The notes under the pieces were generated by a model. That model searched no databases. It was not told the origin of the DNA and saw only the letters and a program-made list of their open reading frames with translations. From an uncultured Acidobacteriota bacterium (GTDB lineage Bacteria > Acidobacteriota > Thermoanaerobaculia > Multivoradales > UBA5704), in the NCBI GenBank assembly GCA_963761805.1, contig CAVXIV010000018.1:145058-209057 (forward strand): a stretch of 64,000 nucleotides of DNA, given 5' to 3'. This document shows, piece by piece, positions 2,860-46,320 of the stretch; the stretch's first letter is position 1; every line of letters begins with the position of its first letter. The translations under genes and the position numbers were made by a program.

Positions 2860-3210
2860 ATGGCGATCGTGATCGATGAAAATCTGACGGCGTCTCCCAC
2901 GAACACGCGCCTGCCCAGCGGTCCGATCACCCTGCGGCAGACCCTGCGTTCCGACCTGGGGAACGAAACGGTCAGCATCACCTACACGCTCGACGGGCGC
3001 CACAACGTCTGTTTCCAGACGGCGAAGGGGCAGGTCAAGCAGATCCAGATCAACGGCCTGAAGATCCCCGGCGCCGCCATCGAGCGGTCCGACACCGTGG
3101 CGCTGGTGGAGGTGGGTGGCGGCACCGAGATGGGCCAGATCATCATCCGGCAGACGATCCGCGGCGAGAACACCGCCCGCGACAGCGTCACCCTCACGGT
3201 CCTGGAATGA
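2860..3210 (+). CDS. hypothetical protein, 116 aa
   Basis: ATG preceded by GGGAGGAAA, 21 nt after the upstream stop. No motif recognised. Confidence 0.45.
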   Translation: MAIVIDENLTASPTNTRLPSGPITLRQTLRSDLGNETVSITYTLDGRHNVCFQTAKGQVKQIQINGLKIPGAAIERSDTVALVEVGGGTEMGQIIIRQTIRGENTARDSVTLTVLE

Positions 3211-7363: not shown

Positions 7364-9032
7364 TTCTGGGAGAGATGATTCCGGGCGAGGTCACGCGCTG
7401 CGCCGTGCGCGCCGGCTCCTACCACGACTCGATCGTGCTGATGCGGCTCCAGCAGGCGCTCGCCACGCTGCCCGGGGTGCTCGACGCCGGGGTGGTGATG
7501 GCCACGCAGACCAACCTCGAAGTGCTCGCGGCCGGCGGACTGGAAGTCGATGTGAAGGCTGGCCCGGACGACCTGCTGGTGGCGGTCAGGGCCGAGAGCG
7601 ACGAGGCGGCGGCCGAGGCGCTGTCGCGGGTGGACGCCCTGCTGCGGGTGCGCGGCGCGTCCGCCGGAGCCGCCGGCGAGCACCGGCCCCGCAGCCTGGC
7701 CACGGCCCTCAAGCAGCTCCCCGAGGCACGCTGGGTCCTGGTCTCGGTCCCCGGCCGCTACGCCGCGGACGTGGCCCAGGAAGCCCTCGACCGCGACCGC
7801 AACGTCTTCCTGTACAGCGACAACGTGCCGCTCGGCCGCGAGGCGGCGCTCAAACGTCAGGCGCGGGAGAAGGGCCTGCTCGTGATGGGGCCGGACTGCG
7901 GCACGGCGTGGCTCGGCGGCGTCGGGCTCGGCTTCGCCAACCGGGTGCGCCGCGGATCGATCGGTCTGATCGGCGCTTCGGGCACCGGGCTCCAGGCTGT
8001 CATGAGTGAGATCCATGCCCACGGCTCCGGGATCTCGCAGGCGATCGGCACCGGCGGACGCGACCTGTCCCCAGACGTCGGCGGGATCACGGCCGTCCAG
8101 GCGCTCGATCTCCTCGGCCGGGACCCGGAGACGCGCGTGATCGTGCTGATCTCCAAGCCGCCCGCTCCGGAGGTCTCCGCCCGCCTGCTCGCCCTGGCCC
8201 GGTCCACGGGCAAACCGGTCGTGGTCCAATTCCTCGGCGCACCGCTCCCGGGACGCCAGATTGGAAACCTTATTTCGCCGCCACCCTGAGCGAGGCGGCG
8301 GAGACGGCGGTCCAGTTGGACAAGAGGTGGAGACCGGAGCCGGACGATCTGTTGCGAAGGCAAGGATTCCTGCGCGGCCTGTTCTCCGGCGGCACGCTGG
8401 CCTACGAGGCGTTGCTGGGGCTCTCGGCGATGCTTGCCCCCATCTATTCGAATCTTTCCTCCAGGCCGGAGTCCCGAGGGGGGCACGCCATCCTCGACCT
8501 GGGCGCGGACGAATTCACCGTCGGCCGTCTGCATCCGATGATCGATCAGGACCTGCGCCTGCGGCGTTTGCGCCAGGAGGCGGCCGACCCGGAAGTCGGC
8601 TTGATCCTGCTGGACGTCGTCCTCGGCGAGGGGGCGCACGCCGATCCGGCCGGAGAGCTGGCGCCCGTGATCGCCCAGATCCTCGCACACAGGGATCTCG
8701 ATGTCGTCGTGATCGTGATCGGCACGGAGGACGACCCCCAGGGCCTGGCGGTCCAGATCGAGACGCTGGAGACGGCCGGCGCGCGGGTCTTCCGCACGGT
8801 GACGGACGCGGTGGCGTGGGTTTCCGAGAGACTGGCGGCCACCGCCGAGCCTGAAGGAGCCGCCGTACCGCTGGAGACGGTCCAGGGTCCCCTGGCCGCC
8901 GTCAACGTCGGCCTGGAATCGTTCCACGCCAGCCTGCTCGCCCAGGGCGCCGCGGCTATCCAGGTGGACTGGCGTCCGCCCGCCGGCGGCGACGAGCGGC
9001 TGGCCGGCATCCTCGCGAGGATGAAGCGATGA
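7360..9032 (+). pseudogene. fdrA: FdrA-like acyl-CoA synthetase (succinyl-CoA synthetase alpha-like fold), one frameshift near 8265-8285
   Basis: MILGEMIPGEV...GLIGASGTGLQ...AIGTGGRDL are in frame 1; the continuation TLSEAAETAVQL...FSGGTLAYEA...LHPMIDQDLR is in frame 0 (track ORF 8316-9032). The join reads NL(Y)FAATLSEAA if one base is restored. Confidence 0.8.
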
Positions 9033-10277
9033 TCGACATCGAGAGCGCCAACCGCGCCGCCATGGAGCGCATGACGTCCACGCGGCCCGTCCTCACCGGC
9101 CTGGGCTCCGCGCGCGACGTGATCCCCGGCATGCGCGACAACCTGCTGCTGCACGCCGGGCCGCCGATCGAATGGGAGCGGATGTCGGGGCCCCTGCGCG
9201 GCGCGGCGATCGGCGCGCTGATCTACGAAGGGCTGGCGCGGGACGAGGCCGGCGCCGTCGCGATGGTCGAGCGGGGCGAGGTCGCCTTCGAGCCCTGCCA
9301 CCATCACGGCGCGGTCGGTCCCATGGCCGGCGTGATCTCATCCTCCATGCAGGTCTACGTCGTCGAGGACGAGACCCACGGCCGCCGCTCCTTCTCCAAC
9401 CTCAACGAGGGCTATGGAAAGGTTTTGCGCTACGGCGCCTTCAGCGGCGAGGTCCTGGACAAGCTGCGCTGGATGAACGGGCGGTGGCGCCACCGTCCTC
9501 GCCCGCGCGGTCGAGCGCCTGGGCGGCATCGACCTGCGGGCGCTGATCGCCGAGGCGCTGCACATGGGCGACGAGGGGCACAACCGCAACAAGGCGGGCT
9601 CGCTGCTGTTCCTCAAGCTGCTGGCGCCGGCCATCGCCCGCGTCGCGCCCGAGAGCTCGCTCCAGGCCGAGATCCTGCGAGTTCCTGGGCGAACAATCCG
9701 CTCTCGGTGCTCAACCCGGTCATGGCGGCCTGCAAGGCGATGGCGGACGCGGCGCACGGCGTGGAGGGGAGCACGATCGTCTCCACCATGGCGCGCAACG
9801 GCACGGATTTCGGCATCCGGGTGAGCGGCCTGGGCGACGCGTGGTTCACCGCCCCGGCCCAGGTGCCGGACGGCCTCTACTTCCCCGGCTTCACGTCGCG
9901 ACGACGCCAATCCCGACATCGGCGACAGCACCATCACCGAGACCGCCGGCATCGGCGCCTTCGCCATGGCGGCGGCGCCGGCGATCGTCACCTTCATCGG
10001 CGGCTCGCCCCAGGACGCCCTGCACGCCACCCTGGAGATGTACGAGATCACCGCCGCCGAGCACGAGCACTTCAACATCCCGGCCCTGGGCTTCCGGGGC
10101 ACGCCCGTGGGCATCGACCTGCGCAAGGTGGTGGAGCTCGGCATCACGCCGCGGGTCAACACCGGCATCGCCCACCGGCAGGCCGGCGTCGGCCAGGTGG
10201 GCGCCGGGCTGGTGCGGCCGCCGATGGCGGTCTTCGAAGCGGCGCTGGTCGCGTTCGCGGAGCGCTATGGGTTCTGA
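9029..10277 (+). pseudogene. DUF1116 (YlbE-like) protein, usual partner of FdrA, with at least three frameshifts (about 9480, 9690, 9900)
   Basis: Collinear pieces lie in three frames: MIDIESANRAA...HHHGAVGPMAG; GGATVLARAVERLGGIDLRALIAEALHMGDEGHNRN; NNPLSVLNPVMAACKAMADAAHG; DANPDIGDSTITETAGIGAFAMAAAPAIV...ERYGF. Confidence 0.7.
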
Positions 10278-10294
10278 TCCCGAAAGGAGGAGCG

Positions 10295-11123
10295 ATGTTC
10301 GTCCCCTATGACATGAGCAAGGTGAAGGTCCTCGATCTCTCGCAGAACTTCAGCATGGATTCGCCGTCGTTCGCGTTCTACGAGGGCCCGACGGTGAAGT
10401 GGGTGAAGCGGCTGGCGTTCGAGGGGGTGAACGCGCAGTTCATCTCGACCACCAACCACATCGCCACCCATCTCGACTCGCCGATCCACTTCTACGATCC
10501 GGGTCCGGACATCGCGGGCATCCCGATCGATACGCTGGTCGGGCCGGCGTGCATCGTGGACATCTCGCAATTCGGCATCGGCGACTACCAGATCTACGGC
10601 CCCGAGCACTTCGAGGAGTGGGAGCAGCAAGACCGGCATCACGATCGAGCGCGGCGACATCCTGGTGATCCACACCGGCTATCACCACTACTACAACGAG
10701 GATTGGTACAAGGTCCACAACCAGGATCAAGCCGGACCTGCCGAAAATGCTTCCTGAAGCACCCCGGACCGCGCAGCGTGTTCTGCCGAGTGGATCCTCG
10801 ACCGCGGCATCCGCTGGCTGGCGGTGGACTGCATCGCCGCGGACCATCCGTTCAACACCAACGTGCGCAAGGCGCGGCCGGACCTCATCCCGGAGGTCGA
10901 GGCGGCGATCGGCATGTCGCTCGACGAGGCCTTCCCGTGGCCCGCGGACTACCAGTGCATGCACGTGAAGCTCTTCCCGCACGGCGTCTTCCACGCCGAG
11001 AACGTGGGCGGGCAGATCGACGAGGTCCTGGATCAGCGGGTCTGGCTCGGCTGCTTCCCCTTCCGTTTCAAGGGCGGAGAGGCGGCCTTCGCGCGCATCG
11101 TGGCGTTCGTGGAGGAGAGATGA
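10295..11123 (+). pseudogene. cyclase-family protein (kynurenine formamidase-like metal hydrolase), two frameshifts (about 10625 and 10740-10800)
   Basis: NHIATHLDSPIHF matches the HxGTHxDxPxH cyclase motif. Pieces TGITIERGDILVIHTGYHH and WLAVDCIAADHP...FARIVAFVEER lie in other frames. SD GGAGGAG lies before ATG 10295. Confidence 0.7.
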
Positions 11124-11277
11124 GGCGTCTAAGGTGCTCGTCCGTGTATGAACTAATGATAGAAGGTAAATGATCGAGCCTGTTGACGCTGGGCGAAACG
11201 CTTCGCAAAGAAGGAATTCTGTCACAGACTGCTGCTGGTCGACGTAAAGGCACAGCCATGCGGGTAGGAGAACGACT

Positions 11278-13969: not shown

Positions 13970-16309
13970 ATGACAACACAGCCTCTCGGGGAACGGATCA
14001 AGCGCAACGAGGACCCCCGCCTGCTGACCGGGCGGGCGTTGTTCGTGGACGACATCGACCTGCCGGACATGCTGCACGTGGCCTTCGTGCGCAGCCAGCA
14101 CGCGCACGCTCGTCTGCTCGGGATCGACACGTCCCAGGCGCTGAAACGGGAGGGCGTCGTGGCGGTCTACACCGCCGAGGACCTCGGGGACTACTGGCAG
14201 CACGGGCCGCTGCTGGTGCCGCCGCCGCCGGTTGAGGGGATGGTCTTCCACGAGCGCACGCAGGTGCCGCTGGCCAAGGGCAAGGTGCGCCACGTCGGCG
14301 AGCCCGTGGCCCTGGTCGTCGCCGTCTCGCGCTACGTGGCCGAGGATGCCGTCGAGGAGGTCTTCGTCGACTACGAGCCGCTGCCGGCCGTCGTGGACCT
14401 CGAGAAGGCCCTGGAGCCGGGCGCCGCCCTGATCCACGAGGACGTGGGCTCGAACGTCGCCGCGTACGTGCCCCAGAAGAAGGGGGATTACGAGGCCGCC
14501 CGCGCCCGTGCCGACGTGGTGATCCGCCGCCGCTTCTCCTACGACCGCGGCGCCTCGGCGGCCATCGAGAACCGCGGCGTGGTCGCCCAGTGGGACGCCC
14601 GCGCCCAGCGGCTGACGGTGTGGGACACCACCCAGGCGCCCATCCCCGTGCGCAACGGCCTGGCGGCCATGCTCGGCCTCTCCGAGCACCAGGTCCGCCT
14701 CGTGGCGCCGTTCATCGGCGGCGGCTTCGGTCCCAAGATCATGATGTTCTACCCCGAAGAGGTGCTCGTTCCCTGGCTCGCCATGCGCTTGGAAAGGCCG
14801 ATCAAGTGGATCGAGGACCGCGCCGAGAACTTCTTCGCCACCACGCAGGAGCGCGGGCAGATCCACGACGCCGAGATCGCCCTCACGCGCGACGGCGTCA
14901 TCCTGGGCGTCAAGGACTCCTTCCTCCACGACTCCGGCGCCTACGATCCCTACGGCCTCACCGTGCCGCTCAACAGCCAGTGCACGCTCATGGGGCCGTA
15001 CCGCATCCCCGCCTACGCCAGCGAGTTCCGGGCGGTCTTCACCAACAAGACCATCGTCACTCCCTACCGCGGCGCCGGCCGCCAGCACGGCGTCTTCGTG
15101 ATCGAAAGGCTGATGGACCTCGCGGCCCGCGAGCTGGGGATCGACCGCATCGAGATCCGGCGGCGCAACTTCCTACTGCCGGAGGAGTTCCCGCACGATC
15201 ACGTGATCATCTATCAGGATTTCGCGCCGCTCTATTACGACAGCGGCAACTACGATCCGGTGATGGACCAGACCCTGGAGCGGATCGGCTACGAGCGTTT
15301 CCTCCGCGAAGAGCAGCCGCGCCTGCGGGCCGCGGGCAAGTCGGTGGGGATCGGCGTCGTCGCCTACGTCGAAGGCACCGGCATCGGTCCTTTCGAAGGC
15401 GCGCGCGTGCAGGTGCAGACCAGCGGCAAGGTGACCGTGGTCACCGGCGTCGGCACCCAGGGCCAGGGGCATTACACGGTGCTGGCGCAGGTCGCCGCCG
15501 CAGCAGCTCGGCGTGCTGGTCGAGGACGTGGAGGTGGTCACGGGCGACAGCGATCAGTTCCACTGGGGGACCGGCACCTTCGCCAGCCGCGGCGCCGTGG
15601 TGGCCGGCAACGCCGTGAACGAGGCCGCCGAGGAGCGTGCGCGAGAAGGCGGTCCGGCTGGCCGCCGAGCGGCTCGGCGTCGCCGAGGACCAGATCGAGC
15701 TCGCCGGGGGACAGGCGCGGGTGGCGGGGGAGCCGGAGAAGTCGATCGCGCTCGGCGAGCTGGCGAAGCTGGCCAACCCCATGCGCGGCGCGGTCAAGCC
15801 CGGCACCGAGCCGGGCCTGGAGGCCACCCGCTACTTCGGCCCCTTCCGCGGCGCCACCGCCAGCGGCTGCCACGCCATGATCGTCGAGGTGGACCCGGAG
15901 ACCATGCAGATCGAGATCCAGAAGTACGTCGTGGTCCACGACTGCGGCCGGGTGCTCAACCCGCTGCTGGTGGACGGCCAGGTGCACGGCGGCGTGGCGC
16001 AGGGGATCGGCAACTGCTTATTTCGAGCAGCTCGTCTACGACGACAACGGCCAGCTCCTGAACGCCAGCTTCATGGACTTCCTGCTTCCCACGGCGCTCG
16101 ACGTGCCGCGCGTCGAGGTTGGCCACGAGGAGACGGTCTCGCCGCTCAACGCGCTCGGCACCAAGGGCGCGGGCGAGGCCGGCGCGATCCCGGTGGGCGC
16201 GCTCTTCGCCCAGGCGATCGAGGACGCGCTGGCCATCCCCGGCCTGGAGATCCTCGAGATCCCGCTCAAGCCCAGCCGGCTCTGGGAGCTGGCCCGGGAG
16301 GCCCGATGA
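13970..16309 (+). pseudogene. xanthine dehydrogenase family molybdopterin-binding large subunit (CoxL form-II-like), three frameshifts (about 15497, 15635, 16020)
   Basis: Collinear pieces lie in three frames, ending ...GTKGAGEAGAIPV...LWELAREAR. The active-site loop reads PYRGAGRQHG, not the AYXCSFR of true CO dehydrogenases. Confidence 0.85.
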
Positions 16310-16428
16310 AGATCCAGATGAACCAGCAGCCCGCACGTCCGGCGTCTCCCGCGAAGCGGCCGTGGCTGATCGGCGGCGCGCTCCTTCTCGCGCTGATCCT
16401 GTTCCTCTTCGCGCGGTCCTTGGAATGA
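16306..16428 (+). CDS. possible 40-aa single-pass membrane peptide
   Basis: The ATG overlaps the CoxL stop (ATGA). MKIQMNQQPARPASPAKRPWLIGGALLLALILFLFARSLE has one hydrophobic helix. No other support. Confidence 0.3.
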   Translation: MKIQMNQQPARPASPAKRPWLIGGALLLALILFLFARSLE

Positions 16429-16523
16429 CCGGGGTGAGGGAAAAGAGCGGTTCCCTTCGTTCTCTGGTGCAAGGCGGTCCAAGACGGGCTGCGACACCAA
16501 AGCAACTAAGGGAGGGAACGAAA

Positions 16524-16610
16524 ATGACCAAGATCGTGCGTGCACTGAAGTCGGCGCTGGCCATCCGCCCCAAGGGCGTTCACTACTGGTGGGGATACCA
16601 CCAGATCTGA
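16524..16610 (+). CDS. candidate RiPP precursor peptide, 28 aa, aromatic C-terminal core (MTKIVRALKSALAIRPKGVHYWWGYHQI)
   Basis: Not listed separately in the track (it is the tail of ORF 16119-16610). GGGAGGG lies 7 nt upstream of the ATG. The stop is 15 nt before the first P450 start. Confidence 0.55.
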   Translation: MTKIVRALKSALAIRPKGVHYWWGYHQI

Positions 16611-16625
16611 CCGGAGAGGGGCCTG

Positions 16626-17747
16626 ATGGCGGACGGAGAATCTGAGGTCGACTTTCATCGGGCCCCGCTGCAGTTCCTCGATCAGGCGTTCCCGGCCGCC
16701 GGGGACGCCGTCTGGCTTCCGGGACGCCAGCTCTGCCTCTCGGAGGCGGCGGCTTCCAGGGCCGTCCTGGTCAACGGCGAAGACCTCTACGAAGACCATT
16801 CCGATTTCTTCCATACCCGGCGCGGCAACTTCGGCCCGCGCTCCGTCCAGGAGGAGATGGGCCGCGCGGCGCGGGCGCTGCTGCGGGCGCACCTCCGCGA
16901 ACGATCGGACAAGCTGCCGGCCGCGGTCCAGGCCCTGGCGCCGGTCAGCGATTGGCCGGACGCCGGCAACTGGCTGGCCTACCGCCATTTCGCGGACGCG
17001 CTGATCGCGCCCGACAGTCCGGCCCGGCTGCGTCATGCGGTCGAACAGATCGTGCGGCGCGCCGTCCTGGCCGGAGCCCGCGACCGCTACTCCCGTCTGA
17101 CCCGCGCCGTGTTCCGGTTCCGCGTCATGCGCGAGCTGGGACGGGCGATCAAGGAACGGCGTGCCCGCAGCGGCGAACCCTTGGACGTCCTCGACGTCGT
17201 GGCCCGCGCGGCGGGACCGGAGGCTCCGGTGGCGGAGCTGGCGGAGGTCTTCCTGTCGTTCCTGTTCGCCGCCGCGGGCTCGGTGGGATTCGTCCTCGGC
17301 TGGTCTCTCTACCTGATGGGCACGCACCCGGGCGCCGAGGCCGAGCCGTCCAGGGTGGTCCGCGAGGCGCTGCGCCTGTGGCCCGTGGCCTGGTTCCTGT
17401 CGCGCCGCCCGGCCCGGCCGCACGAGGTCGCCGGCGTCGCCGTCACGCCCGAGGACGAGGTGATCGTCTGCCCCTACGCCGTCCACCGCAACCCGCGGCA
17501 CTGGGAAGATCCGCACGACTACCGGCCCGAGCGGTGGGCCGCGGACCATGACCCGCAGGCGTTCATCCCCTTCGGCTGGGGACCGCACCGCTGCATCGCG
17601 GGCACGCTGTCCATGCAACTGGTGGAGGACGTCCTCGAGATCCTCGCCGGCGACTACCGCCTCACCGTCACACCCCTGGAAACCCAGCCATGCGTCCGCG
17701 CCGCGCTCGCGCCGCCGCGGTTCACGCTGGCTCTGGAGCCGCGCTGA
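16626..17747 (+). CDS. cytochrome P450 (373 aa)
   Basis: Heme-ligand loop FIPFGWGPHRCIAG. ExxR in REALRLWP. I-helix-like AAAGSVG. Confidence 0.85.
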   Translation: MADGESEVDFHRAPLQFLDQAFPAAGDAVWLPGRQLCLSEAAASRAVLVNGEDLYEDHSDFFHTRRGNFGPRSVQEEMGRAARALLRAHLRERSDKLPAAVQALAPVSDWPDAGNWLAYRHFADALIAPDSPARLRHAVEQIVRRAVLAGARDRYSRLTRAVFRFRVMRELGRAIKERRARSGEPLDVLDVVARAAGPEAPVAELAEVFLSFLFAAAGSVGFVLGWSLYLMGTHPGAEAEPSRVVREALRLWPVAWFLSRRPARPHEVAGVAVTPEDEVIVCPYAVHRNPRHWEDPHDYRPERWAADHDPQAFIPFGWGPHRCIAGTLSMQLVEDVLEILAGDYRLTVTPLETQPCVRAALAPPRFTLALEPR

Positions 17748-18974
17748 TGGCCGTGTCGCCCCGAGAACAGGATGCGTTGCGCGATCTGCGCGCCAGGAGT
17801 TACGCGGAAGGGGGCGTCTTCTGGGTCGGCGAAGACACGCTGGCCGCGTTCGACGGCGAGGTGGCGCAACAGATCAACGCGAGCAATTTCGCGCGACCTG
17901 ACTCTTCCCGACAACCTGAGCGACCTGCTGCGCGGCCGCGACAGCAAGGTTTTCCACTGGAAGCAGGTCCGCGCCGCCTGGCTCGCACGGATGCGGGACC
18001 TTTCGGACCCCGCGGGAATGGAGAAGCTCGCCGCCCATATGAGCGCCCTGCTCGACGAGCGGCTCGGCCGGTCGCTCGATCTGGTCTGGGCGGCGCAGGA
18101 GGTGGTCTCGCAAGCGCTCGTCCCGGTGGTGGTGGACGGCCTCGGACCGGCCGGCACGGCGCGCGTCGTGCGCGATCAGAGCTTCAAGATCGACGAGCTG
18201 ATGGCCACGGGGCCCACGCGCCAGACCCTGCGGGAGAAGCTCCGCGCGGTCTGGATCCAGATCAGCGCCGGCTGGGCCGTACGCCGGGAGCTGCGAGGGC
18301 GCGCGGCCGGCCGCCGGCCGCGCCGGTCCGACCTCACCGATCCGATCGTCGACCTGCTGCCGGAATTGGGGCTGGACCGCGCCGTCGACGCGGTCACCGG
18401 CGTCCTGACCGCCATCGCCGGCCCGCCGGGGACCACCGCGGCCTGCCTGCTCTACGAGCTGACCCGCCGGCCCGACTGGTCGGAGCGGCTGGCCGCCGAG
18501 CTGGCGCCGGTCCCCCTGGCGGACCTCTACGCCGCGCCGACCCGCGTCGCTCCCGCGGCCCACCGCTTCGTCAAAGAGACCCTGCGCATGTGGAGCCCCA
18601 CGCCGCTGGTGCACCGCGCGGTCCGCACCGAGATCCACCACGAGCGGGCCTGCCTCAAGCCCGGCCAGGGTTATCTGCTCAGTCCCGACATCCTCCACCA
18701 CGACCCGCGGCTGTGGAAGGACCCCGACACCTTCGATCCGGACCGCTGGCTCGAAGACGAAGCGTGCCCCGTCTCCGGCGCCCGCTACGTCCCCTTCGGC
18801 TGGTCTCCGAGAGGCTGCATCGGAGCCGGCCTGGGCACCGCGCAACTGATCCTGCTGTGCCACCTGATGACCACCCGCTACCGCATCCAGCTTTCCGATC
18901 CGGAAGCGCTCCGTATCGCGCTGTTCTCGGTGCCGGTGCCCCGGAATTTCAGGGGCACGATCACGCGGCGGTGA
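17747..18974 (+). pseudogene. cytochrome P450, second copy, one frameshift near 17885
   Basis: ATG 17747 overlaps the upstream stop (TGATG). N-terminus MAVSPREQDALRDL... is in frame 2; the rest (KETLRMWSP, YVPFGWSPRGCIGAG) is in frame 0 (track ORF 17772-18974). Confidence 0.8.
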
Positions 18975-18986
18975 CAAGGACTTCCT

Positions 18987-21900
18987 TCAGACCTCGAGGC
19001 GGCGACGGGCGAGCAACTCGTAGATGATCAGAGGATCGACCGGCTTGGTGAGGTGATGGTCGAATCCGGCCTCGCGCGAGAGACGCTGGTCCTCCTCCTG
19101 CCCATAACCCGTCAAGGCCACGAGCAGCGCTTTCGCGGTCCGCCGCCGCCGGCGCAGCCGGCCGGCGACCTGGTAGCCGTCCAGCCCGGGCAAGCCGATG
19201 TCGAGCAGGACGACCTCGGGATGGAACGAGCCGGCCTTTTTCAGCGCCGCCAGCCCATCGTGGGCCGTCTCGACGTCGTGTCCCCGCAAGCGCAGGAGGA
19301 GGGCCAGGCTCTCGGCCGTATCCACGTTGTCGTCCACCACCAGGATGCGGCGCGGCAGCGCCGCGACCCGCGATGGTGCTGCCCGCGGCCTCGCCGTAGC
19401 GCTCCGGCGCCGTGTCCGCGGAGGTTTGGACGGGCAGACGCACCACGAGCTCGCTGCCCTGTCCCAGTCCTTCGCTGCCGGCTTCGACGCTGCCGCCGTG
19501 CAGCTCGACGAGGCGGCGCACCAGCGTCAGGCCGATTCCCAATCCCCCTCCCTTGCGGTCGTACGAGCGGTCCGCCTGCATGAACAGGTCGAAGATGCGC
19601 GGCAGCGTTTCCGGCGCCATGCCGCTGCCGTCGTCGCGGACCCGCACCACGACTTCGCCGGGAGCCTCGCCCTGTCCCAGCTCCGCCGTCACCCAGAGAT
19701 GGCCGCCGTAGGGAGTGAACTTGGAAGCGTTGTTCAGCAGGTTGCCGAAGATCTGATCCAGACGGGTGGGGTCGGCGTCGACGTAGACCGGCTCGCGCGG
19801 CAGCGTCAGCGCCAGCTCCTGGCCGCGCCGCCGCCATGAGGGGCTGGGTCTGCTCGACCACCCGCCTGAGCAAAGTCCGCCAGCTCGACCCGCTCCCTGC
19901 GCAGGCGGACCTCGCCCCGGGTGATGCGGGAGACGTCGAGCAGGTCTTCGATCAACCGCGACATGTTTTGAATCTGCCGGTTCATCATGTTCCGCGCCTG
20001 CTCGACCGCGGCGGCGTCGGCGCCGGCGGCCTCCAGCACGTGCGCGGCGTTGCGCAGGGGAGCCAGGGGATTGCGCAGCTCATGGGCCAGCAGGGCCAGG
20101 AACTCGTTCTTGCTGCGGTCCGCGGCGGCCAGTTCCTCGACGCGCTGGAGCAGAGCCGTTTCCAGCTCCTTGCGCGTGGTGATGTCTTCGATGGCGAGCA
20201 GGGTCAACGACCTCTGGCCGCTCTCCTGAAAGAACCGCCGGGCATTGAGGAGCATGGTCTTGCGGCCGATGCGCGGGAACTCCCGCTCCACCTCGTAGCC
20301 TTCCACGCCGCTGTCCTGAGGCCTCATCTCCTCCAGGAGCCGGCGCAGCTCGGGGATGTTCCATTGACCGTCTCCGAGCTCGTAGAAGAACCGGTGCTCC
20401 GTGGTCTCGGGCGTCTCCTCGAAGGTCTGATAGAACGACCGGCTCGCCGTCTGCACGCAGAGGTCCGCGTCCAGCACGAGGAGGGATTCGCGCACCGTCG
20501 CCACGATGCTTTCGGCATATTCGCGGGCGCGCCGCAGCATGTCGATGTCGACGAGCATGATCACCGCGCCGTCGATCTTGTTCTCCAGGGTCTTGTAGGG
20601 CTGGATGCGCAGCGAGTACCACAGCCCCTGGCGGTCCTGGACCTCGCATTCCCTGGCGCTGACCGTGTCGATCACCTCCGCCAGCAGCGGCTCCAGGTCG
20701 GGGACGCTCGAGGTTGAGCTTGATGTCGCTGATCGGCCGGCCGATGTCGGTGGGGATCAGGTTGAACAGCTTCTCCGCCATCGGCGTGAAGCGCCGGACG
20801 CGCAGGTTCTGCCCGAGGATGACGATCGCCATCTGGACGCTGCCGAGCAGGTTGACCAGGTCGTTGTTGAGCCGGTTCAGCTCGGCGTTGCGGTTCTGCA
20901 GCTCGTCGTTGACCGTGGCCAGCTCTTCGTTGCTCGACTGGATCTCCTCCTTGGAGGTCTCCAGCTCTTCGTTGATGCTCTGCAGCTCCTCGTTGGCCGA
21001 CTGCACCTCCTCGTTGGCGGACTGCAGCTCCTCGTTGGCGGCCTCCTGCTGCTCGATCACCGACTGGAGGTATTCGCGGGTGGCGGCCAGCTCCTGCGCC
21101 AGGCGGGCGTTCTCTCCTTCGGCGAGCCTCGTTCCCGCCGCGGCGGCCCTGGCGCTTCTTCCCTCGCGGGAGTCGGCGGCGCCGCGGCGGAGCGCGGCTC
21201 TTCGAACAGGACCAGGAAGCCGCCTTCCGCCCGCCGAGCTTCCCTTGACGGGAACCACTTCCAGATGGACTTCCCGGGTGCCGCCGTCGGACTGGACCCG
21301 CAGTCCCTCCTCGCGGACCGGGGCCTCCTCCTTGCCGGGCCTTGCCGAGCGCGGCCCGCAGCGCGACCGCCAGCCCCTCCCGCACCATCTTGAGCAGGTT
21401 CAGGCTGGCCTTGCCCGGCGCCGGCGCCAGGTACGGCCCGGTGTCCCCGCGGAACTGCAGGATCTCCAGATCGGCGTTGACCAGCACGCCGGGCGGGGCG
21501 TACCTCGCCAGGAGGATGCGGTCGGCCTCTTTCTGCACGTCGGTCGCCGGCACGGCCGCGAGCGGACCGGGATCGTGCCGGGCTCCTCCCGGTCCCGGTG
21601 GAAATTGGCGGCCTGGCCGAAGGCCGACCGGCGGGCGGCGGGCTTCTTGGCGTAGATCTTGTGCCTGGCGTCCGTCGCCTCGAACAGGTCGCGGTAGGAG
21701 CCGATCGTCTCCGAGCTGCCCAGCAGAGGAAGCCCGCCGGCTTCAGGGCGTAGTGCAGGAGCGGCACGACCTTCTGCTGCAGCGCCGGCTCCAGGTAGAT
21801 GAGCAGGTTGCGGCAGCTGATCAGGTCCATCTGGGAGAAGGGCGGGTCGGTCAGCACGTTGTGCCGGGCGAACACGCACATGTCGCGGATCGACTTGCTG

Positions 21901-23152
21901 ATGCGGTAGCTGCCGTCCACCTCGGCGAAGAAGCGCCGCAGGCGCTCCGGCGAGACGTCCTGCGCGATGCTCTGCGGGTAGACGCCCGCGCGGGCCTTCT
22001 CGATGCCCGCTCCGTTCAGGTCGGTGGCGAAGACTGGACCGGCAGCCGGCTGCCCGTGGCCTCGGCGAGCTCGGCGAAGGCGATCGCGAGGGAGTAGGCC
22101 TCCTCGCCGGTCGAGCAGCCCAGCACCCAGATGCGCACCGGCTCGTTGCGCGGAGCGGTCCTTGAACAGCTGGGGAAGCACCTTGGCCTTGAGCGCCTCG
22201 AACGCCTCCGGGTCGCGGAAGAACCTCGTGACGTTGATCAGGATGTCCTGGTAGAGCGCTTCCACTTCCCGGGGTGGTGCGCGCAGGAAGCGCACGTACT
22301 CCCGCAGCTCCTCCATCTTGTGCAGGACCATGCGGCGGGTGATGCGGCGGTAGAGGCTGTTCGCCTTGTAGTGGGTGAAGTCGACGCCCGTGGCCGTGCG
22401 CAGAGTCTCCAGGATCTTGCCGAGGTCCTCCGGCTCGCCCGCGGGCGCCTTGCGCCTGGCCGGCGGCGCCTGGGCCACGTAAGGGTGCCGGGCGATGCGC
22501 GCGAGCTCCCGGGCGATCTCCGTCCGGGGGGAGCACGAAGTCCACGCAGCCGCTGGCGACGGCGCTGCGCGGCATGCTGGTCTGCTGGGCCGTGTCGTCC
22601 TGGGCGAAGGTGATCCCGCCCTCGGCCTTGATCTCCTCCAGCCCGAGGGTGCCGTCGGTGGCCGTGCCGGACAGGATCACGCCGATCGCCCTGTCGCCCT
22701 GGTCCTCCGCCAGCGAGCGGAGGAAGAGATCGATCGGCCGGTGCTGTCCGCGGGCCTGCTCCCGGGGCAGCAGTTGCAGGACCCCTCCCGAGATGATCAT
22801 GTTGCGGTCGGGCGGGATGACGTAGACGTGGTTCGGCTCGACCCGCGGCTCGTCCTGGACCTCGGTGACCGGCATCGTCGGTGGTCCGGGACAGGATCTC
22901 CGCCAGCAGGCTGGCGTGCGTGGGGGCGAGGTGCTGCACCAGCACGAAGGCCATGCCGGTATCGGCCGGCAGCGCGCGGAGCAGCTGCGTGAAGGCCTCG
23001 AGCCCGCCGGCCGAGGCGCCGATGCCGACGATGGGGAAGGAGGGTGTCACAATCGGACCAACTGCCTTACCTGGAGTTTCCGCCGCGGGGGGAGGAGGAC
23101 GCGGGGTCTCGGCAGGCCGAGAGGCGGCCGGTCCCCTTCGTGGGTTGGGCAT
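18987..23152 (-). pseudogene. multidomain CheB methylesterase - CheR methyltransferase - coiled coil - PAS - HisKA/HATPase - receiver protein, at least about 10 frameshifts
   Basis: Collinear pieces spread over all three minus frames: FPIVGIGASAGGLEAF; ILSGTATDGTLGLEEIK; FFRDPEAFEAL; VWVLGCSTGEEAYS (read by me); NLLIYLEP; the ANEELQS.NEEL coiled coil; PAS; HELRNPL; DDGSGM...GGLGIGL; ILVVDDNVDTAESL...TKPVD. Confidence 0.8.
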
Positions 23153-39915: not shown

Positions 39916-40187
39916 GGACCGAACTGCGCCCGGATCGCTCGGCCGACCGGCGACGAAGTGCCTGGCACCCGTCCGGGCCGCCCGGGCCGGGAATCCGGAT
40001 GACTCGGCCGATGAAGGCCGGGCTTGCCCCGGAAGCCTTGGGCGGTGCGGGACCTGTTGATGGCTTAAGGGAGTATACTAGGCGTAACGGGAGCGGACCC
40101 TGGATGCTTTGAATACCAGGGTGTAGGGCGAGGCACATTTCGAGGAGGCTTATCTGCGCCACCGCCCGTAATCTTTGGAGGACTCCT

Positions 40188-41042
40188 GTGCCGGACAACG
40201 AACAGCTCGGAAGATTGCTTTCCCTTTACTCGACTCAGAAGCTTTTGCAGCACTTTCAGTCCTCGAAAAGGACTAAGGATTCGATGATTCAGGATATAGT
40301 CGAATCGGCTACGCCGGAAGAGATTATAAATTTCGCCTATACCTACCACCCCACTACTAAGCACCATCTTCACCTGTTTTCGCATAGCGCCGAGCAAATA
40401 AGTTCTTTGCCTGACGAGCCTTTGGGGTTGCTGAGTCTTGTTCGGTCAGAGCGGACGGCCACCCAAGCTCTTTGGTTTTACCTGATTGAACTTTCCTATA
40501 ACGTGGTGCTTCGCGATCCTCTGGAAATTGTCCCGGTTAAATTCCCCTGGCCGGTGCTCATTCGCTGCACTAACGACCTGCTTACGCTACGGTTCACGAT
40601 TATGGAGCCAAGTATGGCGTCTCGGTTTGACTCTGGCCGCATCGTGAAAGCAACGCGAGAGATTGATGAGTCTACAGTCCAGGCTCAGGCGCTAGGCAAT
40701 CTCGGCCTCTCCAATGTTACTGCCCTCGACCTTAACAAGGGTGTAAAAGGTCTTTGGTCAGACGACATGATCGACTCTCCTTCCGTCCAATGGAAAAAGG
40801 CGCGCGCCACGACACGGCAAGTCATGGATGGCGACTACTTGGTGAAGCGAGACGATCCCGATCTGTACCAAGAGCTTGTCGATAAGCCCTTATTCGGCGC
40901 CTTGTTTCGGTGGGTTGGCGACAGCATTAGTCTTGAGCACTTCACGGTAGAGGCAACGCAAGGGACGTTTACGTTCAGAACTTTCTCCGACCTAGATAAG
41001 GGGGCAGACTATGTGGTTCGAGAGATTCTTGAACGCAATTGA
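40188..41042 (+). CDS. hypothetical protein, 284 aa (low-GC island)
   Basis: Intact ORF, GTG start after GGAGGA. No motif recognised. Confidence 0.55.
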   Translation: MPDNEQLGRLLSLYSTQKLLQHFQSSKRTKDSMIQDIVESATPEEIINFAYTYHPTTKHHLHLFSHSAEQISSLPDEPLGLLSLVRSERTATQALWFYLIELSYNVVLRDPLEIVPVKFPWPVLIRCTNDLLTLRFTIMEPSMASRFDSGRIVKATREIDESTVQAQALGNLGLSNVTALDLNKGVKGLWSDDMIDSPSVQWKKARATTRQVMDGDYLVKRDDPDLYQELVDKPLFGALFRWVGDSISLEHFTVEATQGTFTFRTFSDLDKGADYVVREILERN

Positions 41043-41415
41043 TTCTAGCTGGGTAGGCAATGCGATCGAGCGTCGCATGAAGCTGATCGAAAGAACCGAC
41101 CCTGAGAACATCTACGTGGAGAATATACGGAGTTTTTTTAACATGCCGTTCCGGATTGCAAAGTTCTTCTGCGATCTAGCTGTCAGAGAAGGGATTTTCT
41201 TCAAGAAGATCGGATATCTGTGTCCCAAGAATAAAAACATCATACTGTATGCAGTACCCGGCGAGCCTCTTCCGGATACGGTTACCTGCCGAGTGTGCGA
41301 AGAAGGAGGCGAGGAAGAGTTCGAGTTTGACCCCAGGAAGCTTCAGACAATTGAAGTCTACAGCATTGTCGCCACGCGGTTAGATAATAACTCCGCCGCC
41401 GTTCACGAAAGCTAA
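41011..41415 (+). CDS. hypothetical protein, 134 aa, possible Cys-based metal site (C-x27-C-x2-C)
   Basis: Overlaps the upstream gene by 32 nt (alternative ATG at 41077). YLCPKNKN...TCRVCEEGGEEEFEF. Confidence 0.5.
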   Translation: MWFERFLNAIDSSWVGNAIERRMKLIERTDPENIYVENIRSFFNMPFRIAKFFCDLAVREGIFFKKIGYLCPKNKNIILYAVPGEPLPDTVTCRVCEEGGEEEFEFDPRKLQTIEVYSIVATRLDNNSAAVHES

Positions 41416-41418
41416 GCC

Positions 41419-41631
41419 GTGGCAATCACCAAAGAAAAGGCGGCAGTGTATCAGTTGATGGCCGATGTAGTCGTTAAGTTTGCGCTTGGCATGGCCGTGT
41501 GCGGGGTATTCGTGGCGATCGCGGTCAAGCTTATCCGCGATCCTAGCTGGCCAGTAGCAGCATTTGGATCGTTTTTGTCGGCCACGGTGTTTCTAGTGTT
41601 CCGTCACTATTTCCATACAAAAAAGAAGTAG
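41419..41631 (+). CDS. small membrane protein, 70 aa, two predicted TM helices
   Basis: GTG 3 nt after the upstream stop. VVVKFALGMAVCGVFVAIAVKLI and WPVAAFGSFLSATVFLVF. Confidence 0.5.
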   Translation: MAITKEKAAVYQLMADVVVKFALGMAVCGVFVAIAVKLIRDPSWPVAAFGSFLSATVFLVFRHYFHTKKK

Positions 41632-41649
41632 CCTCTCCCCCGAGAGGGA

Positions 41650-41955
41650 CCGGCTACGTAATCTTGACGTCTTCCCAAAGGCAACTAAGGCGAATACTCC
41701 TGTAGTCTTGCCTCCAGAGCTCGTTCGCCTGCACGTCCTGGACGAGACCGCCTTGACCACCTCCGTCAGCATCCGCTCGCACCGCTCACCTACCTGGACG
41801 AGCAGGCGAAGGATGGTCTTCTTTTCGGTGCCGGTGATCCGCTCAATGGCCCGGATCGAGCTACCCTCACGAAGCCGGTTCAGATAGAGCAACGCCCGGC
41901 AGGTGCATAGCTTCACCACCCTAAGCCATACTTTTATGCTCTTCTCAGGAAGCAC
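41650..41955 (-). pseudogene. N-terminal helix-turn-helix fragment of an IS-type transposase (remnant)
   Basis: LREGSSIRAIERITGTEKKTILRLLVQVGERCERML resembles the L.EG.S.R...R..GV...TV.RLL...G..C HTH of several IS transposases. No catalytic domain follows. Family not assignable by eye. Confidence 0.4.
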
Positions 41956-41973
41956 GCCGAACAGGGGGTAGAT

Positions 41974-44496
41974 TCAAGGACCAACGTCGGATGCCTTCCG
42001 GAAGGTGCCCACTCGCCTAGGTGCCCCAATCTCTCCGGTAAGGCGAGCGACGCGCCGACGTAGTTCGTCGAGGGAGCCAAGAACGAAGACCTCTTTGGTT
42101 TCAGTAACGTGTAGCATTCCACTACTCGCGCGTGCCAGATCATTAAGCGCGCGTTCGACATCAGGAGTATCTACGCTCTCAAAGCCTTCACAACGGCTAA
42201 TCTCGGCGGCTATGAGGTAGACGTTGCGGGGGGTATTGCGGAGGCGCGGCTCCAGGTCGGCCAAGGCGCGCACTACTCCCTGGTATAGATCGACGTTGTC
42301 AAAGCTGGGATCGGAGAGAAGCCGATCTACCTTGGTGACGACATCGGGAGGAGCAAAGGCGCTAACTACAATCTCTTGTAGGCTCCGGGCATTGATCTGG
42401 CGGCGTTCAGCGGTTTCCACCACGCGAGCAAGTTGTTCGATTGTCCAGCAGCTAACATACTGTTGTCGGGCGCGCTCGCTCACCTCGCTGTGTGGGTCCT
42501 CGGCACCAGGGTACGCAGGAGCTACAAGCAAGCAGCCATTTGCGCCGTTCTTTTCATAGTGTGACCGGAGTCCTGCAAAGTCGAGATGGCCAAGTGATGG
42601 AACATCACTACTGCTCTTCGCTTCCAACGTAAATGTATAGTTCTCAACGCCATGGATCAGATATCGGGCGATGCCATCAGGCGTTCCAGAGCCCCCAATG
42701 TGGCGTGAGCTGAAGCCGAGTGCACGTAATGCGCCTACAAGAGCGATCTCTAAGTCATTTGCGCTGCTCGATGCTTCACGAAGCGACGCTGCAAGAGCCT
42801 GTAGAGAATAAGCTTCGTCGAGTGCAAGACTTCTAAGAAGGGCGTCGCGTTTCTCAAGTAAGTCATTGACGATCTCTGCTTCAACGCCAGCAGCGTGAAG
42901 GTATACCTCCAGCAGTGCCTCTGCAACCACCAACGCTTCAAGGAGTCTCTTGCTGTCGGGTTTTTCTGCGAACTCCCGTACAAGCTCATGATCTTCGTTT
43001 ACAATAAACGTTGCTGTACGGGCATTGAGGCGAGCCAGCGGTTCAAACTCGCCCGCAGGAGAGTACTTAAAGGTGTAGCTACGCTCCTTTCTCTCTGTAG
43101 AGTACAGTTGCTCAACGAGAGCCTGCAGTTCTTCAAGGCCGCTGACGGGCTCGAGTAATCGCCAACTTGATAAAGCTGCCCCTTCCGTTGTCTCTGTGGG
43201 AAAGTCCGCAGCACCCGCAACCAGAACGTCTGCGAGAGGGCGTTCAACGAGTTCGGTGCTAACATAGTCCCGTATACCTTCTTTCTTGCGCTTGTTCTCT
43301 GCTTCGTCGGCTTTTACCCGCTCTTCATACCGATCACGTGCTTGGTTGAAGAGCTGGATAAGTAGCTCCCGGAGCTTTTTTTTGACCTGTGACTGCTCGA
43401 CATCATCGCGTGCTGCGGTCACATACTTATTAAGGTCCGGTGCCTCAACAATCGCAGCAAAGCGATACCATGTTGTAAACGACAGCGGTCGTGCACCGAA
43501 GAGAGGGTCGGTTTCGTTAATGAGGCGATTGTGGACACGGACAAAGAATCCGTGGCTTCGCCCAAGATCCTCACTTTTGCCACCCTCGGCATATAGTGAT
43601 CGTTTGGTTACATAGACCTCACCGATAACGCCTGAAGGAAAGCTGGGAGAGGAAAGGCCGCCCGGAACCTTTGTCCATGTTTCACCTGTGACGGGGCTTA
43701 GGTCCGTTATTCGCTCATCGTCAAGTTCGTCGACCGTGAAGTGTACAATTTTTTCATATCTCTCTTTCGAAGAAGTTATGCGATCTCCATTCAGGTGTAA
43801 AGCGAAGTCGCTTGCGAGAGGCATTGCCGTCTCAAGGACCCACCTCAGGCGCCCAGTGGCGAGTTGATGCGCCTTTTCCTTTAGGTCTTCTAGTACGACG
43901 AGCGTCCAAGTGGGCGTTGCCTCTAGATCCTGTGGATTCGGCTTGGTTGCAAGCACAGCTCTTGCAGCTTGGAAAGACCGGCTGTTCTCCAGTAAAGATG
44001 TACTATCGAGCCTCCGCAGCGTGAGTGCGACAGGCTGAGCGGTGCCAGTTGCATCAGTGGCTGCTGCGAAGGCTTCAAAGTTGATAGATACTGCGTGGAT
44101 GCCCTGAGATGTCCGACTTAGGTATGTGGCATGCCTAGCAACGGCGTAACTGGCAAGTTTGCCTATACCAAACTTGCCAATTTGTTTTCGTCGTGAGGAA
44201 ATGGCTGGCTTATTGCTAACCCCAATATGCCAGAGGTTCTCAAGTTCTTCGAGCGTCATACCTTTGCCATTATCAAAAACCACTATGAGAGGTCGCTCGC
44301 CATCCAAATCAACATGCACAGAACACACACTAGCCTCAGCGTCCCAACTATTAACTACTAGTTCCTCTATTGCCTTTACCGGTGTGGCGTACAGCTGCTC
44401 ACTGAAAAGCTTTATTACTTCATAAGAGATCTGAACATTTACAGTTTTGGTCTCGATGCCAATGGCTTCTACATCATCAGCGAGTCGGAGTGCCAT
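41974..44496 (-). CDS. GHKL (MORC/paraMORC-type HATPase_c_3) ATPase fused to a C-terminal Mrr-like PD-(D/E)xK nuclease domain, 840 aa
   Basis: N-terminal ELVVNSWDAEAS...FDNGKGMT...GKFGIGKLA (Bergerat fold N, G1, G2 boxes). C-terminal LVGALRALGF...GGSGTPDGIARY...FTLEAKSS (PD...EAK). Confidence 0.75.
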   Translation of the reverse strand: MALRLADDVEAIGIETKTVNVQISYEVIKLFSEQLYATPVKAIEELVVNSWDAEASVCSVHVDLDGERPLIVVFDNGKGMTLEELENLWHIGVSNKPAISSRRKQIGKFGIGKLASYAVARHATYLSRTSQGIHAVSINFEAFAAATDATGTAQPVALTLRRLDSTSLLENSRSFQAARAVLATKPNPQDLEATPTWTLVVLEDLKEKAHQLATGRLRWVLETAMPLASDFALHLNGDRITSSKERYEKIVHFTVDELDDERITDLSPVTGETWTKVPGGLSSPSFPSGVIGEVYVTKRSLYAEGGKSEDLGRSHGFFVRVHNRLINETDPLFGARPLSFTTWYRFAAIVEAPDLNKYVTAARDDVEQSQVKKKLRELLIQLFNQARDRYEERVKADEAENKRKKEGIRDYVSTELVERPLADVLVAGAADFPTETTEGAALSSWRLLEPVSGLEELQALVEQLYSTERKERSYTFKYSPAGEFEPLARLNARTATFIVNEDHELVREFAEKPDSKRLLEALVVAEALLEVYLHAAGVEAEIVNDLLEKRDALLRSLALDEAYSLQALAASLREASSSANDLEIALVGALRALGFSSRHIGGSGTPDGIARYLIHGVENYTFTLEAKSSSDVPSLGHLDFAGLRSHYEKNGANGCLLVAPAYPGAEDPHSEVSERARQQYVSCWTIEQLARVVETAERRQINARSLQEIVVSAFAPPDVVTKVDRLLSDPSFDNVDLYQGVVRALADLEPRLRNTPRNVYLIAAEISRCEGFESVDTPDVERALNDLARASSGMLHVTETKEVFVLGSLDELRRRVARLTGEIGAPRRVGTFRKASDVGP

Positions 44497-44498
44497 AA

Positions 44499-46112: not shown

Positions 46113-46119
46113 CGGTCGT

Positions 46120-46320
46120 ATCCTTTCGCGCTCCCTGCCACCGACATAAGCGCGGACGGAGACGTGTGATGAGGCTTCGAAGCCGGCGGCGGCGCTCGAA
46201 ATCGAGAAGCGACCAGATGGCCAGGACAGCCCCAGGCGTCAAGGTGTTCCAGAGGCGGTCCAGGCCGGCGGGAGTGTAGAGGCGGTTGTTGGCGCGCAGG
46301 GTGTACGCCCCGGGACCGTC
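46120..46320 (-). pseudogene. possible remnant of a spermidine-synthase-like methyltransferase C-terminus
   Basis: Minus-strand reading DGPGAYTLRANNRLYTPAGLDRLWNTLTPGAVLAIWS... resembles the ...LY....L......L.PGGVLA.WS tail of that family. No N-terminal part is present. Confidence 0.3.

Follow-up and report, generated by a model that had tools for sequence, protein, structure and literature searches.

The 64,000-nucleotide stretch of contig CAVXIV010000018.1 from an uncultured Acidobacteriota bacterium (assembly GCA_963761805.1, positions 145,058 to 209,057), hereafter called the window, contains a genuine three-gene unit on the plus strand that encodes a 28-residue peptide and two cytochrome P450s. 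The peptide gene (16524..16610, 87 nt; GpeA-like) begins with ATG at 16524, ends with TGA at 16608-16610, and translates to MTKIVRALKSALAIRPKGVHYWWGYHQI. Direct reading of the sequence places a Shine-Dalgarno element, GGGAGGG (16510..16516), 7 nt ahead of its start codon, and the gene forms the in-frame tail of a longer mechanical open reading frame (ORF) at 16119-16610. Fifteen nucleotides separate its stop codon from the ATG of P450 no. 1 (GpeC-type, 16626..17747, 373 aa), which matches the Pfam p450 family (E 1.4e-25) and carries the heme loop motif FIPFGWGPHRCIAG. The stop codon of P450 no. 1 overlaps the start of P450 no. 2 (GpeB-type, 17747..18974, about 408 aa when intact), the sequence being TGATG at 17745-17749; the extent of P450 no. 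2 was set by tblastn to the intact orthologue at locus L001. A preliminary description of this DNA had reported the 87-nt ORF with its ribosome-binding site and 7-nt spacer, the 15-nt gap, and the TGATG overlap, and each of these features is present as described. It had also stated that no protease, transporter, or methyltransferase is adjacent. No protease or transporter adjoins the cassette, and the statement on methyltransferases needs the qualification that a CheR domain lies nearby, the sole one of its kind, within a sensor gene of the chemotaxis type that is unrelated to the cassette and runs on the opposite strand.

The window precursor stands out from its surroundings. When all stop-to-stop segments of the window were scored with a profile built from related precursors, it obtained an E value of 1.4e-17, with the runner-up at 0.3, and searches of the 64-kb window with this profile and with tblastn found no second precursor or additional P450. 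A promoter and terminator scan of positions 16200-19300 returned no promoter-like site and one terminator-like site, which is at chance level.

Relatives of P450 no. 1 are numerous, with 578 among the scored candidates and identities of 62 to 91% in the best 120 listed. Among the matches listed, those with a named source came mostly from metagenome-assembled genomes (MAGs) of Thermoanaerobaculia, with others from Pyxidicoccus, Myxococcus, Hyalangium, and Herpetosiphonaceae. A scan limited to one genome per species returned 65 loci, of which 33 non-redundant loci at 53% identity or more were used as the clade set; these derive from Thermoanaerobaculia, other Acidobacteriota, Holophagales, Myxococcaceae, Herpetosiphonaceae, and one Rhodanobacteraceae (Gammaproteobacteria) MAG. 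An orthologue of P450 no. 2 adjoins that of P450 no. 1 in all 33 loci. The preliminary description had asked whether orthologous P450 pairs are always preceded by a short ORF with an aromatic C terminus, and at least one precursor homologue was found beside the pair in 32 of the 33, sometimes between the two P450 genes and in some loci in two or three copies; the lone exception is truncated by the end of its contig. The nearest relative, Thermoanaerobaculia contig DASVAS010000014.1 (P450 no. 1 91% identical), has two precursor copies, MTRIVRALKSALNIRSKGENYWWLYHQI and MTKIVKALRSALSIRPKGALYWYNYHQI, upstream of the P450 pair. In Pyxidicoccus parkwayensis, the homologue MAKIFRSVMAALAIRRKDPAYRWYVYHHI is located between both P450 genes, as is a homologue ending in SNDRWYMWYVYHHI in a Herpetosiphonaceae MAG, and the genes that flank the cassettes of these three genomes share no relationship with one another. 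An all-against-all search, with spurious overlapping ORFs in the P450 genes masked, showed every other neighbor to be shared by 4 or fewer of 37 loci, and the unit therefore consists of the precursor and the two P450s.

Since homologous precursors adjoin the same P450 pair in almost every locus of the clade set, the small ORF is a true conserved coding gene. Among homologous precursor genes, 40 of 41 have a GGAG, GAGG, or AGGA element within 18 nt of the start codon, each of the three stop codons terminates the frame at this position in one locus or another, and Tyr(-4), numbered from the C terminus, is encoded by TAC in some precursors and by TAT in others. Trp(-7) and Tyr(-4) are present in all 44 distinct precursors, and the terminal residue is hydrophobic in every one. 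A third aromatic residue occurs at position -9 in 38 precursors and at -8 in five more, including the window peptide, for a total of 43/44; position -6 is aromatic in 34/44, and the residue at -3 is His in 32/44. The leader is conserved as well (...K-I-x-R-A-x-x-x-A-L-x-I-R...), and the window peptide joins a basic leader of the form M-x-K-I-x-R-A-x-x-x-A-L-x-I-R to the core Y-W-W-G-Y-H-Q-I.

Several loci contain multiple precursors, some with differing core types, including L019 (Acidobacteriota MAG BP_59; precursors at 2201 and 4243), L032 (4261, 4414, and 4567), and L007 (4250 and 5431). At L019, a precursor ending in ...YGWWGYHQI lies upstream of the P450 genes and one ending in ...YIWYLYHHI lies between them. 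Loci of this kind suggest that several cores are processed by one enzyme pair. Core sequences are nearly identical across phyla, and the core YRWYVYHHI is shared without change by a Pyxidicoccus locus (L002, 7165-7252) and a Saccharothrix locus (L073, 4616-4705) despite their diverged P450s, which suggests either that selection on the peptide is strong or that the cassette has moved horizontally. The literature searched yielded no relevant match to the core strings YHHI, YHQI, WYVYH, and YWWGYH and nothing relevant on P450-modified RiPPs (peptides made by ribosomes and then modified post-translationally) of Acidobacteria, Myxococcus, or Pseudoalteromonas.

Comparison of P450 no. 1 with solved structures in the PDB by phmmer returned a single close relative, 9ULW_A (E 1.1e-80, query residues 11-371 aligned to chain residues 10-373), the remaining matches being generic P450s at E 1e-17 or worse. 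This structure is that of GpeC, a RiPP macrocyclase discovered by mining for co-occurring short peptides and enzymes, whose product was named "Gpertide" (Liu et al., bioRxiv 10.1101/2024.10.06.616194). P450 no. 1 and GpeC are 40% identical over 362 aa by tblastn. GpeC forms a biaryl bond between Trp-C7 and Tyr-C3 in the WMLY segment of its native 27-mer substrate GpeA2, as established by a mass change of -2 Da, tandem mass spectrometry (MS/MS), and nuclear magnetic resonance; the N-terminal W-F of the product is unmodified, its b2 ion being unchanged in MS/MS (bioRxiv 10.1101/2024.10.06.616194). The enzyme is leader independent, the 9-mer WFWMLYHHM being sufficient, and its activity is lost in the H57G, D59G, F60A, A256F, and C325H variants (bioRxiv 10.1101/2024.10.06.616194). 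In a HMMER alignment, the five residues affected correspond to H58, D60, F61, A255, and C323 of P450 no. 1, all of which are invariant among the 12 clade members of alignment A1. P450 no. 1 is thus most likely a GpeC orthologue, and it is predicted from this homology to form a Trp(-7)-Tyr(-4) bridge.

The precursors lead to the same group of enzymes. The supplement of the GpeC preprint describes a clade 1 of GpeC relatives with the precursor pattern W/Y-X-WXXY-H/N-H/N-I, and its figure list includes a GpeC assay with YRWYLYHHI among "bioinformatic-guided" 9-mers, the caption of Fig. S31 printing YRWLYHHI (bioRxiv 10.1101/2024.10.06.616194). The string YRWYLYHHI is the C terminus of three precursors recovered here, at loci L009 (Myxococcus sp.), L015, and L034. 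The window core, H-Y-W-W-G-Y-H-Q-I, fits the clade 1 pattern at W-x-x-Y (W-W-G-Y), at His(-3), and at the terminal Ile. The cassette is therefore a Gpe-type (GpeC/WxxY) cassette for a cyptide, as RiPPs cross-linked by P450s are called, and represents a known kind from a clade that has been mined before. The preliminary description had proposed a precursor of the RiPP type for aryl cross-linking by P450s, a proposal that the homology to GpeC and the invariance of WxxY in 44/44 precursors strongly support. It had further regarded the core as one of no recognized class, which the match of P450 no. 1 to GpeC (E 1e-80) and the earlier appearance of the clade motif and of YRWYLYHHI in the preprint supplement contradict.

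The gpe cluster itself was located on a contig (locus L070) that encodes a protein 98% identical to GpeC, the GpeC sequence having been taken from the PDB alignment. The genes at this locus are, in order, those for two precursors (...WRWVMYHHM and ...WFWMLYHHM), a 406-aa P450, GpeC, and an ABC transporter, and the precursors match GpeA1 and GpeA2 of the preprint (bioRxiv 10.1101/2024.10.06.616194). Over its full length, the 406-aa P450 directly upstream of GpeC shares 33% identity with the L001 orthologue of P450 no. 2 (E 7e-79). The layout of the gpe cluster recurs in a Pseudoalteromonas genome, Saccharothrix variisporea has a P450, MAKLIHAALVALNIRKSDGQYRWYVYHHI, and a P450 in that order with the second enzyme type 48% identical to the L001 orthologue, and a Streptomyces has a peptide ending in ...HHFWYLYHHI between two P450s of these types. 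These three loci were fetched separately from the clade set, and they and the gpe cluster contain precursors as the clade loci do. Because both P450s occur in all four, the two-P450 arrangement is ancestral to the whole family and not peculiar to the window. The cassette is present in five phyla as counted here (Acidobacteriota, Myxococcota, Chloroflexota, Gammaproteobacteria, and Actinomycetota), a wider range than the mostly actinobacterial and myxobacterial one given in the preliminary description. That account had also treated the pairing of two P450s as new; the gpe cluster has a second P450 of the same type, and the two-P450 tsu and oli clusters, the only two-P450 RiPP clusters listed in a late-2024 review, were already known (PMC11659900). 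An ABC transporter adjoins the cassette at the gpe locus and at L072, is not conserved across the acidobacterial and myxobacterial clade, and is absent beside the window cassette; it is probably not a defining feature of Gpe-type clusters.

More distant relatives of P450 no. 1 occur in other contexts. In Nonomuraea and Streptosporangium (L038-L060), single P450s that are 34 to 40% identical to P450 no. 1 lack the second P450, and many have a short frame ending in ...AWGRWE or ...AWGRWG about 70 nt upstream of the P450 (locus position 3001), with nonaromatic variants in others; from its sequence, this frame may be a putative precursor of a WxxW type. In Amycolatopsis and Actinocatenispora (L062, L063, and L065-L068), P450s about 30% identical are preceded by a conserved precursor with the pattern M-R-T-L-R-F-F...W-[RQ]-x-Y-Y-[EV]-[IV]-Y, which is probably another cyptide class.

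The window cassette is probably a minimal Gpe-type cyptide cluster in which P450 no. 1 bridges Trp(-7) and Tyr(-4) and P450 no. 2 then modifies the same peptide. The P450 homology, the conservation and coding character of the precursor, the invariance of its Trp and Tyr, and the retention of the residues critical in GpeC were all computed, and the chemistry of GpeC was taken from the literature; from these we infer the reaction of P450 no. 1 on this core and all of the role of P450 no. 2. In the proposed pathway, the 28-residue peptide would be translated from its own strong ribosome-binding site, and P450 no. 1 would join the Trp(-7) indole and the Tyr(-4) phenol ring by oxidative coupling within W-W-G-Y. 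By the precedent of GpeC, the bond expected on the window peptide is most likely a Trp-C7 to Tyr-C3 biaryl (-2 Da). P450 no. 2, translationally coupled to P450 no. 1, would then act on the same peptide, as is also suggested by the conservation of a leader that GpeC does not need. Removal of the leader and export would fall to host functions because the cassette encodes no dedicated protease or exporter. The product of the cassette, judged from the sequence relationships, is most likely an aryl-bridged cyclic peptide.

Several observations weigh against this pathway. The window core deviates from the clade 1 pattern in having His at -9, Tyr at -8, and Gln at -2, and its Trp at -6 makes a WxY or other register of cross-linking chemically conceivable. 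The strong conservation of the leader, though GpeC works without one, is unexplained. GpeB, any second P450, and the transporter receive no mention in the main text or supplement text of the GpeC preprint, the literature searched contains no description of what the second enzyme does, and a fold search with the P450 no. 2 orthologue gave no functional hint (the match to CYP17A1 having a template modeling [TM] score of 0.64 to 0.67). Finally, the assembled gene for P450 no. 2 contains one extra base at about 17894, TTTCGCG[C]GACC, which breaks its frame after codon 49.

The most plausible reaction for P450 no. 2 would build a second ring, fused to the first, that takes in the third conserved aromatic residue just ahead of the Trp (Tyr(-8) here, at -9 in most relatives), with hydroxylation as the alternative. 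The target is placed at -9/-8 because this is the sole universally conserved aromatic that GpeC leaves unused. Position -6 is nonaromatic in the gpe-type precursors, which are nonetheless accompanied by GpeB, and it therefore is not a universal target of P450 no. 2. It is a tentative proposal, which we regard as close to evenly balanced, that GpeB-type P450s link the -9/-8 aromatic to the Trp/Tyr rings by a second aryl bridge, that the product is a fused bicycle, and that the conserved leader is the recognition element for the GpeB-type enzyme. There is precedent for both parts of such chemistry: AscB makes a Tyr-x-Trp bridge (Tyr-C3 to Trp-N1) together with a second ring on the Trp, giving a fused cyclophane (PMC13185096), and in the oli and tsu clusters a second P450, OliC or TsuC, adds a further bridge (PMC11659900).

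It is rather unlikely, at a level that still carries some weight, that P450 no. 2 is instead a tailoring oxygenase that hydroxylates Trp, Tyr, or His, or an accessory protein whose part is to bind the leader and present the peptide. Hydroxylation of Trp by RiPP P450s is known, namely by AscB/MmsB, which act at Trp-C5 (PMC13185096), and by the roseovertin enzyme, and a conserved leader beside a leader-independent GpeC would suit an enzyme of this kind. The alignments of P450 no. 2 with P450 no. 1 or GpeC are partial and show only about 25 to 29% identity, and the protein has no close relative among the sequences of the PDB, the best match being CYP51 (5e-14). An AlphaFold2 model of its orthologue (predicted local distance difference test score 80.7) retrieved only generic P450s from the PDB with Foldseek (CYP17A1, CYP51, and BM3; TM about 0.6 to 0.67, 19% identity or less). 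Against the accessory form of this explanation, the heme-thiolate loop (FGWxPxxCxG) and the ExxR motif are invariant in 35 orthologues and kept in the window, so that P450 no. 2 is catalytic and no mere chaperone. Against the tailoring form, the third aromatic near the Trp, which GpeC does not touch, is present in 43/44 precursors and constitutes a cross-linkable residue without an assigned enzyme.

The broken frame of P450 no. 2 raises the distinctly improbable alternative that the cassette is decaying, either with P450 no. 1 as its one active enzyme and a monocyclic product or with no working pathway at all. The frame is indeed lost after codon 49 in the assembled sequence. The preliminary description had guessed the break at about 17885, close to the position of about 17894 obtained by alignment to the 97%-identical DNA of the nearest relative, in which AATTTCGCG-C-GACCTG of the window is set against AATTTCGCGGACCTG. 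Beyond the shift, the correct frame is open to the native stop: P450 no. 2 matches the intact L001 orthologue by tblastn at 96% over aa 1-49 (17747-17893) and at 91% over aa 50-408 (17895-18971), and the bridged reading is free of stop codons and contains all 40 residues that are invariant in the 35 orthologues.

Breaks of the same kind occur in neighboring genes of the window. The gene for a molybdenum subunit of the xanthine dehydrogenase family has a comparable one-base insertion that splits it at about 15636 (13970-15880 and 15637-16428), and a minus-strand sensor gene with CheB-CheR-PAS-HisKA-HATPase domains (18961-23152) is broken into five or more ORFs. A single ORF at 9029-11173 combines AllG and cyclase domains. 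Between 9029 and 23152, there are many single-base frameshifts in otherwise well-conserved genes, a pattern typical of uncorrected long-read indels, and similarly split matches to P450 no. 1 were found at loci L012, L034, and L035, which are from long-read MAGs. Because other genes of the window and these long-read loci show like indels and the downstream frame is open and conserved, we infer an assembly error as the most likely cause of the break, and the reading of the cassette as a pathway with two working P450s is retained.

The idea that the small ORF is a chance or regulatory frame and no substrate, the P450s oxidizing a small molecule, draws on the lack of a RiPP recognition element, protease, and exporter in the cassette, and it is effectively refuted by conservation, since in five phyla the ORF keeps its frame, ribosome-binding site, and aromatic core at the side of the P450 pair amid unrelated flanks; in addition, GpeC, the closest characterized enzyme, works directly on a peptide of this kind.

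Elsewhere in the window, positions 40000-46200 form a low-GC island, with a GC fraction of 0.50 to 0.54 in comparison to about 0.69 in the rest. The genes in it include two on the minus strand, which encode an N6/N4 DNA methylase (44499-46112) and an 840-aa HATPase_c_3 protein (41974-44496), and the island looks like a horizontally acquired restriction-modification or defense-type module.

What the window adds to the Gpe-type cyptides is a member from Thermoanaerobaculia, an uncultured acidobacterial class, with the variant core YWWGYHQI. The comparison of loci adds a point that the text of the preprint does not discuss, which is that a GpeB-type P450 and a strongly conserved leader accompany the GpeC-type enzyme almost always and in five phyla. 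Because of this association, the widespread cassette probably yields a mature product of greater complexity than the monocyclic "Gpertide." The GpeB-type enzyme could be a new biocatalyst, and if the fused bicycle proposed above is correct, the compound actually made in nature would be a cyptide of two fused rings with a second aryl bridge that is hitherto undescribed.

Among characterized P450-modified peptides, the biarylitides (BytA/BytO and P450Blt) and cittilins (CitA/CitB) resemble the window cassette in being minimal RiPP clusters with a precursor and a P450 that cross-links aromatic side chains. Biarylitide precursors are pentapeptides of the form MxYxH (or MxHxH), whereas the window precursor has 28 residues and a conserved leader, and the 60 best matches of P450 no. 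1 among solved structures do not include P450Blt. The cittilin core, YxYY, does not occur in the window peptide. The tsu and oli clusters of the atropitide type (Ge group; PMC11659900) combine one precursor with two P450s, the second of which extends the scaffold built by the first with an aryl bridge, as proposed here; they differ in being from actinomycetes, in having a first P450 that makes three links, and in their tryptorubin-like W-Y-x-W-Y core, of which HYWWGYHQI is not an example. Membership in the biarylitide, cittilin, and tryptorubin-type classes was rejected because these core motifs are absent.

Other cyptides are closer to the expected chemistry. In the rubrin or pru-type WxxY cyptides of actinomycetes (Kim group; PMC11659900), one P450 joins W1 to Y4 of W1-x-x-Y4 from Trp-C7 to Tyr-C3; these have been described with a single P450, and they were compared with the window by description only. 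In the YxWxH cyptides formed by AscB (PMC13185096), likewise compared by description only, a Tyr two residues ahead of Trp is bridged and the Trp bears a second ring, which provides a precedent for the bicycle proposed at Trp(-7); in contrast to the scheme outlined for the window, a single P450 performs both steps, and the motif is YxWxH and not Y(x)WxxY.

The closest known system is the gpe cluster, from which the window cassette differs in several respects. The gene order is precursor, GpeC-type P450, and GpeB-type P450 in the window and precursors, GpeB-type P450, GpeC-type P450, and ABC transporter in gpe, and the window cassette has one precursor instead of two and lacks the transporter. 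The window core (Y-W-W-G-Y-H-Q-I) has its extra aromatic residue at -8 and not at -9, an aromatic residue at -6, and Gln at -2. The window cassette resides in a Thermoanaerobaculia-like acidobacterium, in contrast to the gpe locus, which has Gram-negative lipopolysaccharide genes for neighbors. The likenesses extend to all three components of the unit: P450 no. 1 is homologous to GpeC from end to end and keeps the residues critical to it, a GpeB-type second P450 is present in both, both precursors have a basic leader and place W-x-x-Y-H-x-[I/M] at the extreme C terminus, and the clade 1 logo and the 9-mer YRWYLYHHI of the preprint match precursors of the clade to which the window belongs.

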